Origin: an uncultured Candidatus Saccharibacteria bacterium
GTDB lineage: Bacteria; Patescibacteriota; Saccharimonadia; Saccharimonadales; JAGQNJ01
DNA length: 42,538 bases
Direction: 5' to 3'
NCBI GenBank assembly: GCA_964493895.1
Contig: CAZBPY010000001.1
Span: 165,245 to 207,782, forward strand
Shown: in pieces, positions 14,904-37,153 of the stretch
Position numbering within the stretch: the stretch's first letter is position 1
Layout of the letters: the number at the start of each line of letters is the position of its first letter
Position numbers and translations under genes: made by a program
The notes under the pieces: generated by a model
Databases searched by the model: none
What the model saw: only the letters and a program-made list of their open reading frames with translations
Told to the model about the DNA's origin: nothing

Positions 14904-16256
14904 ATGCCCAGCCCGGCCTTAGCCGAAGTCTACCAGTTTAACGAAGTAGCCGACCAACCGCCGCAAGTGATAATTGTGCCGGAAATGGCCGATGATCAAC
15001 TAGTACGTCACCGAGCTGCTCGATTTGCTGGCCAACTAGCCAGCCAATCAACTGTCGAAGTAGACAAAGCTCTGACTGATGCTGAACCGCACACCACACT
15101 ATTTGAAGCTGTGACCACTGGCAATAGTGATCTAGTCCGAGCTAATGTCGAGGCTAATATGGTGGAAATTGCCTTTAAAGCCGGCTTTGTAACAGAAGTT
15201 CAATTGCAGGAGGACGAAAATGGACATACTCATCAGTACGGACAGAGTCTTAAGTCGATCCAAGCCAATAATTTGCTGCACGGTACAGATAGTGGCGAGA
15301 TGCATCAACGATCGCAAGCTGAAAACAGAAATGTCTTTCGGTTTGAATCTGTCAAACAAACGGGCTTACTCCAGAACCACTGGTTCGTGACTGTTTCTAG
15401 AACCGCTACTGAGATGACAGAGAGGGCGATGGATCAGGCTGGGTTCTTTACTGAAACCATGAGTCTATCTATTCAGGCCACTACTGACTTGGACGGTGTT
15501 TTGACTATGGAATCGGCCTTTATGGCTGGGGTTGCTGAGGAGGGTGGTGAGCGGCGTGATGAAGAGATAGTCGCAGCCATCGGTGAGGCTATTGGTGTAG
15601 ATTTGCGCGGTCTGTCAGCGACAGAATTATTGGATATGCCGTTATTAATTCCGAAATCTTTAATGCCGAATGGAACTATCGACTTGGTAGCCATGGGCGA
15701 TGAACCATTTGGGACTTTCTTTGGCCAGAACAAGCCAGGGCAGGATTACCTTGCTTACCGCGAAGCTTGCCGCCAGCACCGGGCAATGTTTAGCCAGAAG
15801 GTCGATAAAGTAACTGATCAATTGATGAAAGAAGCTGTTCATATCAAGGATGAGATTGATGCCACAAAGCGCCTCCACGAACTTTGCGGTGATGAAATGG
15901 TCAGACAGGCCGTAGTCGACGAGTGGATAGATCCTGGAGTTTTCGGGCCACAATCAAAACCCTTCATTATCGAAGCTCGCCGGCAACTAGCACTTGGAAA
16001 CAGCCATGCCGGACTGGAGGCGACCAAAAAAGCCTTAGAAGTAGCGGACCCCCGTTCGTGTGCGTTCTCATCAAAAGCCGGAAACAATAGCCTGGAAAGA
16101 TCAGAAAACGACTCCAGGCCATCTGACGAAGCCGATGATTTTGGCCCACTATGGTTTAAATGCAAGAAAGGACATTGGAATAAACGAAAGCGCGCCAAGA
16201 GCTCTAAAGACTTTATGTCTCACTGTAAAACCTGTGGTGTAAGTGTGGCTTGCTAA
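14904..16256 (+). CDS. Hypothetical 450-aa acidic protein with a C-terminal Cys/His cluster
   Basis: Long open frame; C-terminus FKCKKGHW...HCKTCGVSVAC suggests a zinc ribbon; no family recognised. Confidence 0.8.
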   Translation: MPSPALAEVYQFNEVADQPPQVIIVPEMADDQLVRHRAARFAGQLASQSTVEVDKALTDAEPHTTLFEAVTTGNSDLVRANVEANMVEIAFKAGFVTEVQLQEDENGHTHQYGQSLKSIQANNLLHGTDSGEMHQRSQAENRNVFRFESVKQTGLLQNHWFVTVSRTATEMTERAMDQAGFFTETMSLSIQATTDLDGVLTMESAFMAGVAEEGGERRDEEIVAAIGEAIGVDLRGLSATELLDMPLLIPKSLMPNGTIDLVAMGDEPFGTFFGQNKPGQDYLAYREACRQHRAMFSQKVDKVTDQLMKEAVHIKDEIDATKRLHELCGDEMVRQAVVDEWIDPGVFGPQSKPFIIEARRQLALGNSHAGLEATKKALEVADPRSCAFSSKAGNNSLERSENDSRPSDEADDFGPLWFKCKKGHWNKRKRAKSSKDFMSHCKTCGVSVAC

Positions 16257-16265
16257 AATAGAAGG

Positions 16266-16856
16266 ATGGACAAACAGCGCATCGGAGTTTTTAGCGGTAC
16301 TTTTGACCCGGTTCATCGCGGGCACATCGAGTCTTGTGTGGTGGCCTTAGGGACTTTGATGCTGACAACAGTTTGCCTGTTTTTGGAGAAAAAGCCGCGG
16401 CGCAAAACAGGGGTGGCTGATTTTCGTGATCGGGCCAATATGCTTGATCTGGCCACTATAGATTACCCTAGTTTGCGGATTGTCGATCTGGAGGAGGATA
16501 ATGTCACGACGGATAATGCTCTTAATTATCTGGAAAAGCAATTCCCGGGCCGCGAATACTGGTACATAATCGGGTCAGATATTTTAGAGCACCTGCCGTC
16601 CTGGCCCAAAAGCGACAAGTTGCTTAAAAAGTTCAATCTGTGCGTGGTGCTGCGTGAAAATAATGAATTTGATAAGGTGACCGCCGCCGTTAAAAAGCTT
16701 CAAGAAAAATATCCGGATACCCAGTTTGTGGTGCTGCCCAGTGTTTGGTCACCAATTTCGTCGTCAAGTGCCAAAAAACAGCTTAAAAAAGGTGAATTAG
16801 TGACCGGCTTGGACCCGGCAGTCCAGGAGTATATCAAGCGTCACAACATTTATTAG
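16266..16856 (+). CDS. nadD: Nicotinate-nucleotide adenylyltransferase-like (cytidylyltransferase superfamily)
   Basis: GVFSGTFDPVHRGH (HxGH), IIGSDILEHLPSW, PISSS, VQEYIKRHNIY. Confidence 0.82.
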   Translation: MDKQRIGVFSGTFDPVHRGHIESCVVALGTLMLTTVCLFLEKKPRRKTGVADFRDRANMLDLATIDYPSLRIVDLEEDNVTTDNALNYLEKQFPGREYWYIIGSDILEHLPSWPKSDKLLKKFNLCVVLRENNEFDKVTAAVKKLQEKYPDTQFVVLPSVWSPISSSSAKKQLKKGELVTGLDPAVQEYIKRHNIY

Positions 16857-18130
16857 CGCAGCAATAGAGTTGCCAGACCTAAGAAGGCTAGAAAGCCCAA
16901 AACATCAGTGGCGGTGGTAATGAAAATTGTTGCCGAAGCCGCCGGATCTTTGCCGAGTTTGGCCATAATCAGCGGCACCATGGTTCCGAAAAAGGCAGCT
17001 ACCAACATGTTGAGCACCATGGCAATAGCTAACACTATGGCAACTCCTTGATTGCCATTGACCACCAAGACTACCAGGGCCACTAAGATAGCATTAATAA
17101 GGCCGTTAACAAAAGCTGCTCCCAGTTCGCTGCGCAAAGTCCGCCAAGCCTTATCTAGAGAAATTTGCTTCATAGAAATGCCGCGTACTTGGACGGCCAA
17201 TGTCTGGGTAGCAGCATTACCGCCCATACCAGCCACGATTGGCATATAAACAGCCAGAAGAACGTATTTGTCTAGAGTATCTTCAAATAAACCAATGGTT
17301 GCAGCCGCGATAAAGGCGGTTGCCAAGTTAATAATTAACCATTTGTAGCGATATTTCACTTTTTGTTTGGCGGTGTCGGTAACGGTTTCCTCGTCATGGA
17401 TACCGGCAAAGTCGTACAGATTCGATGATTCTTGCTTTTGAATCAATTTAAGCATTTCATCAGAGTAAATCACGCCGACGACATGATCGTCGTCGCTTAA
17501 TACTACGACCTTATTGTGAGGATGTTTATTAAAAAGTCTTAGAACCTCGTGATGTTGGGCAGCGTAAGAAATTGATGGGATGCGCTTTTTGTATTTGTCG
17601 ATGCGCTCACTCTTTGCGGCAAAGCCTAATTCATGTCCCGGCAGGTGGCCAGCCAATTTAGAGCCATCCATGATTAATATAACTGGTGATCGGCCGGTTT
17701 TTGTCTCATGGGCTTTGAACTTTTTAGCCGCTGTCTCTATGTTGTCATCGATGTTTACCTGAATATAGTCCAAGGTCATGAGTCCAGCGGCAGTTTCCGG
17801 ATCGAATTCTAGAAGTTTCGACAATGATTCTTTCATGTCAGCGCTAAGCTGCTGCAGAACTTCTTCACGACGGTGCTTGGTCAGACTTTGCAGAATGTCG
17901 GTGGCATCATCTGGGTCAAGCGGCTCTAACAAGCTAACAATATTCTCAATCGGCAGCTTGGCGAGGAGTTCTTTTTTTACCTTCGGTGTCATCGAGGCAA
18001 AATAATCAAATTGTTGATCGTCAGGAATGCCTAGGAAAAGCTCAACGCGCTGGTTGTGCTTGAAGAGCATGTCGGCCAATTTTAATGGATTTACGGAATT
18101 AAGAGACTTGGGAATTTGCATTTTGCGCAT
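16853..18130 (-). CDS. mgtE: Magnesium transporter MgtE
   Basis: DPDDATDIL, PETAAGLMT, CBS pair, RYKWLIINL, PIVAGMGGNAATQ, DPAASATIFITTATDVLG. Confidence 0.95.
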   Translation of the reverse strand: MRKMQIPKSLNSVNPLKLADMLFKHNQRVELFLGIPDDQQFDYFASMTPKVKKELLAKLPIENIVSLLEPLDPDDATDILQSLTKHRREEVLQQLSADMKESLSKLLEFDPETAAGLMTLDYIQVNIDDNIETAAKKFKAHETKTGRSPVILIMDGSKLAGHLPGHELGFAAKSERIDKYKKRIPSISYAAQHHEVLRLFNKHPHNKVVVLSDDDHVVGVIYSDEMLKLIQKQESSNLYDFAGIHDEETVTDTAKQKVKYRYKWLIINLATAFIAAATIGLFEDTLDKYVLLAVYMPIVAGMGGNAATQTLAVQVRGISMKQISLDKAWRTLRSELGAAFVNGLINAILVALVVLVVNGNQGVAIVLAIAMVLNMLVAAFFGTMVPLIMAKLGKDPAASATIFITTATDVLGFLAFLGLATLLLR

Positions 18131-18180
18131 GACTAAACTATAGCACTTTCGGCAGCTGTTCTAAATCTGGCCCAAATTTG

Positions 18181-18210
18181 TTGACAAGCATAAGCGGGGC
18201 GTGCGACAAT
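18181..18210 (+). promoter_or_regulatory. sigma70-type promoter facing an otherwise gene-empty intergenic region
   Basis: TTGACA (18181-86), 18 nt, TGcGACAAT (-10 at 18205-10). Confidence 0.6.
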
Positions 18211-18279
18211 GAAGTTACTAAAGCCGGTGCGAGAGCGGCCGAAGAACAAAAAACAAAAAATCAATGAAAGGACATAAAC

Positions 18280-18372
18280 ATGTCTGTAACCGTCAAAGTG
18301 GTGGCGTCACAACGGGTCAGGATACCTGTAACTTCTCGCCGACCAACCTGGCAGGAATTCCTGCACTATTAG
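18280..18372 (+). CDS. Candidate 30-aa small protein MSVTVKVVASQRVRIPVTSRRPTWQEFLHY
   Basis: AAAGGA SD 7 nt before the ATG, downstream of the promoter at 18181 and an A-rich tract. Confidence 0.5.
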   Translation: MSVTVKVVASQRVRIPVTSRRPTWQEFLHY

Positions 18373-18374
18373 GG

Positions 18375-18474
18375 AGCAAAATTACCTTCGCTCAACAGAC
18401 CGTTACGCGCAGGGTGCGCCAGCGCACTCTGGCTGCACTTCGCTTTTAGTCTGTTTCACGAAGGTAATTTTGCT
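18375..18474. ncRNA. 100-nt long hairpin (unknown ncRNA, 3' UTR element or bidirectional terminator)
   Basis: 16-bp perfect IR AGCAAAATTACCTTCG/CGAAGGTAATTTTGCT, nested 7-bp AACAGAC/GTCTGTT, apical 8-bp AGGGTGCG/CGCACTCT (one G-U) with a CCAG loop. Confidence 0.55.
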
Positions 18475-18479
18475 TACCA

Positions 18480-19124
18480 CTAGTTCCCAGATTTGGCCAG
18501 CTGTTCGTCGATGAGCTTGCTGAATCCGGCTAGGTCGGATGGATTTTCAATTTTTTGACCATTTAGGACAAATGTTGGCGTACTAGTAGCACCGAATTTT
18601 TGGCCCAATCTAATGTCGGCTTGAATGACGTCGTTGACCGGGTCGCTGGCGAAATCTTGCTTGAATTGATCGATGTTCAGACCCAGCTCGGCAGCATAAT
18701 CTTCCATGACGGCTGTTGGGTTGCCGGATGATTGCCAAGCCTGTTGCCGCTGATAAAGCAGCTCGTACATTTCCCAGAACTTGCCTTGTTTACCGGCTGC
18801 TTCAGCTGCCCGATGCGCCACCATGGCGTTCTGGTGGATTTGAACCAGCGGGAAGTGACGGAACTGAAAACTGATTTGGTCGCCGTATTTTTCCTGAACT
18901 TGCTCGATCACTGGGAAATAACTTCGGCAAGCCGGACACTGAAAATCGCCGAATTCTACTAATTCTACGCCGCCGGTGTTAGCTCCGAGGATATGGTTGG
19001 AGCCTTCCGAAGTTGAAGCCGAATTATTGCTGGCAGTGTTGCTGTCCTTGTTTTTGCTGTAGACAACTACGCCGATGAAGACAACGGCTAGAGCAGCTAG
19101 GATAAGTAGAAATCGTTTGCTCAT
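18480..19124 (-). CDS. DsbA-family thiol-disulfide oxidoreductase, membrane-anchored
   Basis: N-terminal TM; VEFGDFQCPAC, FRHFPL, AAEAAGKQGKFWEM, GATSTPTFVLNG (cis-Pro loop). Confidence 0.93.
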   Translation of the reverse strand: MSKRFLLILAALAVVFIGVVVYSKNKDSNTASNNSASTSEGSNHILGANTGGVELVEFGDFQCPACRSYFPVIEQVQEKYGDQISFQFRHFPLVQIHQNAMVAHRAAEAAGKQGKFWEMYELLYQRQQAWQSSGNPTAVMEDYAAELGLNIDQFKQDFASDPVNDVIQADIRLGQKFGATSTPTFVLNGQKIENPSDLAGFSKLIDEQLAKSGN

Positions 19125-19195: not shown

Positions 19196-20329
19196 ATGGT
19201 TATGTTAATCGTGACGCTTCTTACGGCTGGCTTGTTGCTGCTGAGCGTAGCTTTGTTAAAACTCTATACCCATACGCCAGGCAAAGAGTTAAAACGTCAA
19301 GCCCGGTCTGGCGATCATTTAGCCAAAGAGTTCTACAAGGTTGTGGGCTACGGGCGCAGTTACGAGATTTTATTATGGATCTTTATTAGCTTGGCTGCAG
19401 CTGCTCTGTTTTTATTGATCTCTGAGTCAACGCCATGGCCGATCGCGTTAGTTATTATGCTGGCAATTGTTTGGTTTGTTTTTGCCTGGCTACCCAATTC
19501 TCATGTCTCCAGGGTTACAGTTGAGATTGCCCGCCGATTGTCGCCGGCGCTTCACTGGTTGCTGGAAAGGCTCCAGCCAGTGTTGGTACGCATTGACCAG
19601 TTCATGCAAAGGGTTCAGCCGTTCAGTATTCACACCGGACTCTATACCAAAGATGACGTTATCGATCTTATCAAGCGACAAAAAGTCCAAATTGATAACC
19701 GCATCACTAAAGAAGAATTGTTTATCGTCGAACATGCTTTGCAGTTTGGTGATCGGATGGTGTCGGAAGTCATGACGCCGCGGCGCGTTATGAAGACTGT
19801 TGCCACAACCGATATGATTGGACCAATACTGCTCAAAGAGCTGCATGATAGCGGCCACTCCAGATTCCCGGTTTATAAAGATAATCCCGACGACATTGTT
19901 GGAACACTCTATTTGCGTGATGCGCTGAACGCCAAAGCTGGTGGATTTGTTAAAGACCTCTACCGCAAGGAAGTTTTTTACGTCAATGAAAATCAGCCGC
20001 TGGCTCGGGTGTTAGATGCTTTTATCAAGACCAAGCACCACCAGTTTTTGGTCGTCAATCAGTTTGAAGAAATTGTCGGCCTGGTGACGATTGAAGATGT
20101 TGTCGAGTCGATTTTGGGCCGGCAAATTATGGATGAATTCGACTCTTACGAAGATTTGCGGACTGTGGCGGCTTTGGAGGCTGAAAAAGATGAAGCCAAG
20201 CGGGCCAAGGCCGTCAAGGAAGAGTCCAAAGACGAAGCCAAAGAAGAAGCTAGTGCTTCGAAGGACGACGAAACAGTGGTAGAATCGAAACAAGTTAAGC
20301 CAAAGGACAAAAGTGAGAACGCTAAGTAA
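19196..20329 (+). CDS. CNNM (DUF21)-like TM domain plus CBS pair protein (CorC/hemolysin-like)
   Basis: Three N-terminal TMs; VSEVMTPR, SGHSRFPVY...DDIVGTLYLRD, GLVTIEDVVESILGRQIMDEFD; charged C-tail. Confidence 0.88.
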   Translation: MVMLIVTLLTAGLLLLSVALLKLYTHTPGKELKRQARSGDHLAKEFYKVVGYGRSYEILLWIFISLAAAALFLLISESTPWPIALVIMLAIVWFVFAWLPNSHVSRVTVEIARRLSPALHWLLERLQPVLVRIDQFMQRVQPFSIHTGLYTKDDVIDLIKRQKVQIDNRITKEELFIVEHALQFGDRMVSEVMTPRRVMKTVATTDMIGPILLKELHDSGHSRFPVYKDNPDDIVGTLYLRDALNAKAGGFVKDLYRKEVFYVNENQPLARVLDAFIKTKHHQFLVVNQFEEIVGLVTIEDVVESILGRQIMDEFDSYEDLRTVAALEAEKDEAKRAKAVKEESKDEAKEEASASKDDETVVESKQVKPKDKSENAK

Positions 20330-37077: not shown

Positions 37078-37153
37078 GGGGCGGTAGCTCAGTGGTTAGA
37101 GCAGTCGGCTCATAACCGATTGGCCGAAGGTTCAATTCCTTCCCGCCCCACCA
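37078..37153 (+). tRNA. tRNA with CAU anticodon (probably Ile2/lysidine; elongator Met not excluded), CCA encoded
   Basis: Acceptor GGGGCGG/CCGCCCC, D-arm GCTC/GAGC, anticodon arm GTCGG-CTCATAA-CCGAT, T-arm GAAGG-TTCAATT-CCTTC, A73, CCA. Not fMet (no C1:A72, no three G:C pairs in the anticodon stem). Confidence 0.95.

Follow-up and report, generated by a model that had tools for sequence, protein, structure and literature searches.

Very small basic ribosomal proteins such as bL36 and bL34 are produced from autoregulated leaders, and bS22/bL37 is a lineage-specific example from Actinobacteria. TnaC and SpeFL are regulatory arrest peptides that act at the stop codon. The type I toxins Hok, TisB and Fst, as well as MgtS and MgtR, which regulate Mg2+ transport, are hydrophobic membrane peptides made of a single helix. 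At the RNA level, the stem-loops of the ermC and aprE leaders are 5′ stabilisers in Gram-positive mRNAs, and repetitive extragenic palindromic (REP) or terminator hairpins are 3′ exonuclease barriers. In this work, a locus found on a stretch of 42,538 nucleotides (nt) from an uncultured Candidatus Saccharibacteria bacterium (hereafter, the window) was compared with these systems. Genomes of Saccharibacteria are about 1 Mb in size, and many genes in them lack a functional assignment. It was found that positions 18181-18478 of the window very probably constitute a monocistronic unit for a conserved, strongly basic protein of 30 residues, which is specific to Saccharibacteria and is not annotated. 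The unit contains the following elements:

18181-18210, plus strand: promoter, with the -35 box TTGACA (18181-18186), the spacer element GCATAAGC (18188-18195) and the TG-extended -10 box GACAAT (18205-18210)
18223-18241, plus strand: 5′-proximal stem-loop, GCCG / loop GUGCGAGAG / CGGC, which folds in the window
18242-18272, plus strand: single-stranded leader GAAGAACAAAAAACAAAAAA, consisting of the motif GAGACAAAAA plus an A-rich tract (18242-18262), then the Shine-Dalgarno sequence (SD)
18280-18372, plus strand: gene of the 30-residue protein, 30 codons with a TAG stop; product MSVTVKVVASQRVRIPVTSRRPTWQEFLHY, isoelectric point (pI) 11.6
18372-18478, plus strand: three-tier hairpin of about 105 nt at the 3′ end of the transcript, between this gene and the convergent dsbA
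18401-18449, plus strand: core module of the hairpin, with ACGCGC, a helix (18410-18418/18423-18431) containing the invariant pair G18413.U18428, then GCUGCACUUC

Below, sORF (short open reading frame) means the 30-codon ORF at 18280-18372 (+) of the window and its family counterparts in the loci of relatives, which are designated by L numbers. A preliminary description of the region had named the promoter, the 5′ GC hairpin, the A-rich tract, the sequence AAAGGA and the 30-codon ORF, and all of them were found within a few nucleotides of where it had placed them. It had also proposed a check of conservation and covariation across Saccharibacteria. This check revealed that the promoter, the 5′ hairpin, the ORF and the 3′ hairpin are conserved in relatives, so their presence is far more than chance would give.

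The family has in common with small ribosomal proteins a length within 25-45 residues, a pI above 10, the apparent lack of an autonomous fold, a strong promoter and a structured, conserved 5′ leader that might be used for feedback. However, sequence and profile similarity to ribosomal proteins is absent (Pfam, NCBIfam, PDB), and the gene lies outside ribosomal operons. As in TnaC and SpeFL (approximately 24-34 codons), the C-terminal part is highly conserved and an RNA structure stands right after the stop codon; unlike them, the sORF has no downstream target on the same strand, its terminal residue is Tyr, any stop codon is used and the spacing to the structure is variable. Hok, TisB, Fst, MgtS and MgtR resemble the product in size (about 30 residues), and the sORF of the window adjoins mgtE, whereas the peptide is hydrophilic and basic and the adjacency to mgtE is not conserved.

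The stem-loop, only a few nucleotides away from the predicted 5′ end of the sORF mRNA, and the very stable 3′ hairpin are similar to the stabilisers mentioned above, but sequence conservation is seen in the loop GCGAGAG, in GAGACAAAAA and in the 3′ hairpin core, a feature that a simple stabiliser does not need. Bidirectional terminators likewise lie between convergent genes and fold on both strands; in contrast to them, the window hairpin is 105 nt long and three-tiered, with a sequence-conserved core and without a U-tract. 6S RNA, too, is a long interrupted hairpin with a promoter of its own, but no Rfam 6S match was obtained, the window structure measures about 105 nt versus about 180 nt, it is confined to one clade and it lies in the 3′ untranslated region (UTR) of a coding gene. 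A small-protein gene with structured UTRs is an already known kind of object, while the 30-residue family and both RNA motifs (that of the leader and the 3′ P1-P2 motif described below) are new to all libraries searched.

The 30-residue protein family

A search with nhmmer, in which the intergenic region was compared with 80 mgtE-anchored genome loci (MgtE identity 60-66%), gave zero nucleotide similarity because these genomes are too distant, and closer relatives were therefore sought via exact-protein look-up. The closer sequences obtained were L083 and L082, whose MgtE is 82-84% identical, and L176 and L171-L175, whose DsbA is 73-85% identical. Alignment with the window showed that the ORF is kept in L083, L082 and L176 and that the substitutions are mostly synonymous or conservative. 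The corresponding peptides are MSVTIRVISTGNVEVPVKVRRPSWQEFLHY (L083), MSVTVRDVSTGHVNITVKVRRPSWQEFLHY (L082) and MSVTVKVVSSERVRIPVTSRRPTWQEFLHY (L176), and the consensus of the family is MPIKIKV-x5/6-VEVKVRRPxWQQFLxY-stop. Members at about 100 loci, including more distant ones, were found when a hidden Markov model (HMM) of the peptide was applied to six-frame translations, and a metagenome scan provided 80 more loci. All 98 of the 98 HMM alignments that reached the conserved C-terminus ended exactly at a stop codon, after Tyr. The family proteins are 29-32 residues long and are never part of a larger protein, and the C-terminus RRPxWQxFLxY-stop is fixed across the approximately 100 loci.

Codon-level analysis was based on 69 distinct 30-codon sequences. 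Entropy at the three codon positions was 0.92/0.60/1.56, and the synonymous share of codon differences was 41% in frame, as opposed to 10% and 3.6% when the frame was shifted. All synonymous codons of the invariant residues are in use, and each of the three stop codons occurs. A protein-coding sORF is expected to display purifying selection at the amino-acid level, together with a start, length and stop conserved across divergent genomes. These codon statistics show that the ORF behaves as a protein-coding gene under purifying selection.

A profile search of 5.8 billion proteins yielded 53 clusters (90% identity), none of which had a Pfam domain, and the only name given to them was "hypothetical protein". 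An HMMER scan of 1.84 billion representatives yielded 126 clusters (50% identity) with lengths of 29-76 residues, in which the match was located at the extreme C-terminus. The longer entries of the family (up to 76 residues) appear to be the result of mis-called starts; gene callers often assign this gene a wrong, longer start. A literature search (peptide motif; small proteins and ribosomes of Saccharibacteria) found no description of the family. Annotations of the phylum should include this gene, and for intergenic "ncRNA" candidates of this type a search for conserved tiny ORFs should come first.

The peptides are hydrophilic and basic (pI 10.3-11.6; grand average of hydropathy, GRAVY, from -0.2 to -0.6) and have no hydrophobic stretch. 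Profile searches of Pfam, NCBIfam, PHROGs, PADLOC and PDB with the peptides gave sub-threshold noise only. Modeling with AlphaFold2 (28 and 54 sequences) led to models with a predicted local distance difference test score (pLDDT) of 59 and 62, respectively, without secondary structure. The N-terminal KIKVxxSxGT bears some likeness to bL33; this was rejected since the hhalign probability was 2%. In the window the sORF is single, with no second copy detected by HMM. A 61-residue ORF (18264-18449) overlapping the hairpin is not conserved in relatives and was therefore treated as spurious. In addition, locus L032 (3893-3985) contains a copy of the sORF with an in-frame stop at codon 8 (MPVVTNI*NKKREDMQTKARRPSWQQFINY), which is possibly a pseudogene or a shortened form.

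Promoter, leader and 3′ RNA structure

Scanning of a 1.4-kb region revealed six promoter-like sites versus 1.6 expected, and the site at 18181-18210 had the top score. Its spacer is 18 nt long, and 10 of the 12 consensus positions are matched, plus the TG (consensus scan). Based on the spacing and on the family-wide motif "tACTTC", the transcription start is predicted near A18217. The family form of the promoter is cTTGACA followed by (A)GCATAAGC. The combination of TTGACA and then GCAYRAGC was seen 31 times in 884 kb, always upstream of a family sORF. One subgroup has instead the reverse complement GCTTATG just before the -10 box (six occurrences at sORFs, one elsewhere). The 8-mer GCATAAGC directly after the -35 box, or its reverse-complement form, was observed in the promoters of about 37 family loci. 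The specificity of the spacer element for sORF promoters suggests that it may be an operator for a dedicated regulator.

The leaders follow one plan across the family, namely the -10 box, "tACTTC", a stem-loop, GAGACAAAAA, an A-rich tract, usually a second hairpin and the SD. In the window, the SD AAAGGA is located at 18267-18272, 7 nt upstream of the ATG at 18280. The first hairpin lies between the start motif and GAGACAAAAA in nearly all leaders, and the mean fold z-score was -2.0 (64 leaders). MAFFT and RNAalifold applied to the 5′ leaders did not give a consensus structure because the variable stems misalign, and the stems were therefore analyzed sequence by sequence. At least eight stem sequences of the first hairpin were found, including GCGG/CCGC, CGTG/CACG, GCAG/CTGC, GACGA/TCGTC and ACCG/CGGT, with the constant loop GCGAG(AG). 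This stem-loop is closed by pairs of the CUUC/GAAG type, and it is the inner stem that varies. The pattern GA[GA]A[CT]AAAAA, which describes motifs of the GAGACAAAAA type, was found 42 times upstream of sORFs versus 24 times elsewhere (866 kb, both strands). Of the 78 leaders, 49 contain the motif GYGAGR and 23 have it two or more times, the expectation being 0.08 per leader. The GYGAGR loop was seen in the first leader hairpin and often in the second one too (window 18229-18235; L080, L003, L006, L165, L168).

A 5′-terminal stem-loop is a classical stabiliser against 5′ exonuclease in bacteria of the Gram-positive type. The GYGAGR hairpin loops are also candidate targets, either of the protein in a feedback loop or of a dedicated regulator. 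Together with these loop motifs, the conservation of the promoter spacer suggests that the gene may be controlled by a dedicated regulator or by feedback.

The three-tier hairpin noted in the preliminary description is present and extends, by a few nucleotides, beyond the limits given there. It consists of a lower stem of 19 pairs and a single bulge, a 7-bp middle stem and a 9-bp apical stem (previously 16, 7 and 8); the structure starts at the last base of the sORF stop codon, and 1 nt separates its other end from the dsbA stop codon (18480-18482). The folding energy of the 266-nt stretch was -92 kcal/mol (z = -5.0), and none of 200 shuffles was as good. The two strands of the hairpin fold equally well (-52.6 and -57.6 kcal/mol), and it is not repeated elsewhere in the window. 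The three-tier form was found only in the window (and L001), L176 and L083. RNAalifold analysis of the window, L176 and L083 hairpins gave 37 pairs, 17 of which had compensatory double changes; the lower stem is wholly different in sequence yet paired, and the core is almost invariant.

At the same spot, most relatives (L080, L003, L082, L103, L102, L093, L135 and L172) have a canonical bidirectional intrinsic terminator. The full set of A-tract, hairpin and U-tract was found in these relatives, while the window hairpin has no U-tract. L096 contains a perfect 25-bp hairpin between the sORF and dsbA. The hairpin can be read as the window clade's version of the 3′-end structure that is common to convergent sORF and dsbA transcripts. 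Judged from this comparison, the large downstream hairpin is a conserved 3′-end RNA structure and not a separate non-coding RNA (ncRNA) gene. In some close relatives, an extra Pfam-less ORF of 122-125 codons located between dsbA and the sORF takes the place of the long hairpin; it was observed in L082 (2345-2713), L174 (2155-2532), L171 and L175.

A profile built from the three hairpins detected the 3′UTR of L148, a distant member of the family, and a pattern search added L107. The core module is located 37-46 nt past the sORF stop in L148 and L107 and is also present in the window, L001 and L083. These five sequences share ACGC(G)C, a 9-bp helix and CUCYGGCUGCNCUUC. Within this set of five sequences only, the helix was 95.6% paired, five pairs were changed on both sides and the G.U pair was invariant in 5/5; no shuffle reached the observed score, and slid controls scored far lower. 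Compensatory changes and a strand-specific pair are the properties of a cis-acting structured 3′UTR element, here again seen in five sequences only. On the dsbA strand the invariant G.U would be C.A, which indicates that the sORF strand is the functional one.

Covariance models revealed a two-hairpin form of the module, composed of P1 (UGAGACAnCC..GGnUUUCUCA), UCGCGCC, P2 and the tail GCUGCUCUUCC, for which RNAalifold gave 20 pairs, 11 of them covarying. This P1-P2 form lies in the sORF 3′UTR of L126, L138, L117, L091, L152 and L157, and the core of the window is a P2-only version with the tail GCUGCACUUCG versus the consensus GCUGCUCUUCC. In L148 and L126 a separate terminator follows the motif, which is therefore not merely a terminator. 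The P1-P2 motif was located at the following positions:

L148, 361-440
L107, 2595-2680 and 1672-1753 (minus strand)
L126, 2021-2104
L138, 2593-2675
L091, 1835-1958 and 905-986 (minus strand)
L081, 4293-4374
L034, 6075-6156
L142/L143, 485-569

Copies of the motif without an sORF were found directly after tRNA-Ser in L034, before a gene similar to the Pfam-less 450-residue gene of the window in L142/L143, where an sORF-type promoter and hairpin precede the motif, and, with opposite orientation, in a short gap before nadD in L081, L091 and L107. The possibility that the sORF 3′ copy and the copy at the start of nadD form a long perfect antisense pair was rejected, as no long inverted repeat within a genome was found. 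In region 400-690 of L142, an sORF-type promoter, TACTT and GCGAG-loop hairpin lead straight into P1-P2, with no sORF in between; folding predicts that the CU-rich tail is base-paired to the SD (GAGGGGAGCAG) of the downstream 450-residue-like gene, and the arrangement looks like a cis-regulatory leader. An Rfam search of 20 family loci and two motif loci gave nothing relevant, and neither the leader motif nor the P1-P2 motif is in Rfam. Candidate functions of P1-P2 are a recognition site for a protein or ribonuclease (RNase), or a regulatory RNA with a CU-rich tail resembling an anti-SD.

Proposed role and rival explanations

The preliminary description had listed, among several options, a small-protein mRNA with a protective 3′ structure, and this option is supported by the coding nature of the ORF and by the position of the hairpin, which sits where relatives hold a terminator or a 3′UTR structure. 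In the proposed mechanism, the 5′ stem-loop and the 3′ hairpin would shield the short mRNA from exonucleases and so allow high, long-lived expression. The 3′ hairpin would also end or insulate the convergent sORF and dsbA transcripts, i.e., do the same job as the bidirectional intrinsic terminators of sister lineages, and the core at 18401-18449 may be a protein- or RNase-recognition module of the 3′UTR. A function of the hairpin as a termination or insulation element, or as an exonuclease barrier, is what we infer here. The protein itself, with a pI of about 11 and no confident predicted fold, would act bound to RNA or the ribosome, and binding to one of these is its most likely property in this model. 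Because conservation extends from the promoter element and leader RNA through the peptide to the 3′UTR motif, an important and tightly controlled role is implied, and the gene is a candidate for a lineage-specific core function.

Evidence for expression came from a relative, L121: a 203-nt contig from a rhizosphere metatranscriptome, about 92% identical, spans 105 nt of the leader and the entire sORF, and it was the sole full-length match within the 5-kb L121 locus. Compared with L121, it has an in-frame 3-nt insertion inside the ORF, and its leader indels are not multiples of three, a pattern that speaks for a coding ORF. This contig is weak but positive evidence of a discrete, relatively abundant transcript. 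Homologues of MgtE and DsbA assign the window to Saccharimonadales. DNA runs that contain the window sequence are activated-sludge metagenomes, and the Logan DNA contigs are identical to the window sequence, which leaves zero population variation to compare.

Several observations weigh against the proposed reading. The sORF was undetected beside dsbA in 4 of the 11 genome loci that hold both mgtE and dsbA, so it is either not universal or has diverged beyond detection in them. A terminator scan of 18372-18478 found no site, and there is no U-tract on either strand; therefore, terminator activity of the window hairpin is something that we infer. The RNA- or ribosome-binding role is proposed from the charge, the size, the absence of a confident fold and the elaborate leader only, and the searches revealed no ribosomal or RNA-binding homologue (Pfam, NCBIfam and PDB, with the low hhalign probability for bL33 given above). 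A run search found no RNA run containing the window sequence; the sole RNA evidence is the contig described above, which belongs to a relative of another family member (about 92% identity), and metatranscriptomes may contain DNA.

Saccharibacteria are reported usually to lack bL32, bL9 and uL30 (PMC9297842), and a lineage-specific ribosomal component is therefore conceivable. It is possible, if doubtful, that the 30-residue product is a translation component found only in Saccharibacteria (a ribosomal protein or a ribosome-bound factor) that is feedback-regulated via the GYGAGR loops of the leader, or that the unit is an RNA switch coupled to translation, the fold of the 3′ motif (P1-P2 and its CU-rich tail) being set by the ribosome's state at the sORF stop. 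It is unlikely that the transcript is a dual-function RNA, giving the peptide and also a small RNA derived from the 3′UTR, whose CU-rich tail might, for example, pair with purine-rich ribosome-binding sites. In support of such an RNA, the module covaries with its invariant G.U on the sORF strand, a conserved pyrimidine-rich tail follows it, a separate terminator stands behind it in L148 and L126, the motif also exists without an sORF (L034, L142/L143, L081, L091, L107), and in L142 the tail is predicted to be base-paired to the SD of the gene that follows. However, the instances number about a dozen, the L142 pairing is a single-sequence prediction, any target is hypothetical, and the window version lacks P1 and has a tail that departs from the consensus.

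Regarding the sORF as a sensor or arrest peptide implies that a ribosome paused at its C-terminus or stop would melt the structure and thereby control 3′-end formation and antisense read-through into dsbA. The last approximately 10 residues and the stop are indeed the most conserved part, the fixed length of about 30 residues roughly corresponds to one exit tunnel, and no confident fold is predicted. The window hairpin starts on the stop codon, P1 begins 4-10 nt past the stop in L107, L148, L126 and L138, and convergence with dsbA is kept in 61/78 loci (all neighbor counts rest on 78 loci with sufficient flanking sequence). A tight coupling between the stop codon and the downstream helix was nevertheless rejected, being only weakly enriched: the distance is loose, at most 15 nt in 46% of loci versus 30% in shuffled sequences and up to more than 60 nt. 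Any of the three stops is used, the last residue is Tyr and not Pro, the N-terminal MPIKIKV is conserved too, and about 19% of loci have no downstream dsbA. Attenuation would require a regulated gene downstream on the same strand, but in most loci the next gene is on the other strand; a same-strand gene, coding for a CBS-domain protein, directly follows the sORF in only 2/78 loci. We consider this explanation quite unlikely. The same counts bear out the earlier remark that the unit is not a standard leader and that no gene follows on its strand, the next gene being the convergent dsbA in the 61 loci.

The preliminary description had also considered an unknown ncRNA, possibly a short 6S-like RNA, and a type I toxin-antitoxin-like locus. 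A stand-alone ncRNA gene, 6S-like or other, in which the ORF is incidental, would fit the strong fold (z = -5), the compensatory changes in the hairpin, the promoter and the absence of a downstream gene. However, the coding signature across about 100 loci is unmistakable and effectively excludes a pure ncRNA, the full hairpin is limited to one small clade, and the sister lineages that keep the ORF lack the long hairpin and have ordinary terminators. An Rfam search of 18100-18520 on both strands at E up to 10, which covered 6S, signal recognition particle (SRP) RNA, transfer-messenger RNA (tmRNA), RNase P and M-box, found nothing meaningful. The ncRNA gene is thus highly improbable as the principal explanation, and what survives of the idea is the apical module, a conserved RNA motif outside Rfam.

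A type I toxin-antitoxin-like locus would comprise a toxic peptide under the control of an antisense RNA, and the small ORF with its own promoter, the structured mRNA and the convergent transcript may recall such a locus. Nevertheless, it is extremely improbable: the peptide is hydrophilic and basic and has no hydrophobic helix, the housekeeping neighbors are kept across many genera of the lineage, the sORF is a single copy in the window, PADLOC and PHROGs gave no match, no dedicated antisense promoter was found and the sole convergent transcript is the dsbA mRNA. As for a precursor of a ribosomally synthesized and post-translationally modified peptide (RiPP) or of a cofactor, its core would be the invariant C-terminal W-Q-x-F-L-x-Y; the small size and the invariant C-terminus recall PqqA or MftA, and the window peptide has E-x3-Y. 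This PqqA-like motif was rejected since Glu is replaced by Gln in most members. There is no radical-SAM or other maturation enzyme nearby at any locus, where the neighbors are dsbA, the CBS-domain protein, a class II aminoacyl-tRNA synthetase (aaRS), nadD and mgtE, and the genomes are highly reduced; such a precursor is very unlikely.

Genomic neighborhood

In the window, the unit is flanked by two genes:

16853-18130, minus strand: mgtE, divergent neighbor encoding a magnesium transporter (Pfam MgtE_N, CBS, MgtE), outside the unit
18480-19124, minus strand: dsbA, convergent neighbor encoding a DsbA-like thiol:disulfide oxidoreductase (Pfam Thioredoxin_4, DSBA), which shares the intergenic hairpin

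Beyond the convergent dsbA, the loci of the family contain the CBS-domain gene and the class II aaRS gene. The upstream neighbor is variable, namely nadD, a Pfam-less 450-residue gene, mgtE in either orientation, a Na+/H+ exchanger gene or another gene. Since the upstream neighbor varies while the sORF unit stays, the unit, as judged from gene order, is not an mgtE leader, and its adjacency to mgtE in the window is incidental. An M-box (RF00380) mgtE leader on the minus strand was considered and rejected: no match was obtained on either strand, and the unit persists when mgtE is absent or inverted.

A promoter-like site of mgtE was noted at 18137-18165 (minus strand; TTTAGA, 17 nt, TATAGT). 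It ends 6 nt before the annotated ATG (18130), so near to it that the mRNA would be leaderless or nearly so, or the start would be at the second Met (codon 4). The Pfam-less 450-residue protein with a Cys-rich C-terminus (..CKKGHW..HCKTCGVSVAC) is encoded at 14904-16256 of the window; its gene is conserved beside nadD in relatives, several of which have the P1-P2 motif on its flank. The class II aaRS gene, if it starts at the predicted GTG, shares 17 nt (20313-20329) with the end of the CBS-domain gene. The sole Rfam 15 match in the window is a tRNA gene at 37078-37150. Positions 994-1127 of L130, a contig from related Saccharibacteria, matched the cobalamin riboswitch (RF00174) with a score of 36.1 bits.

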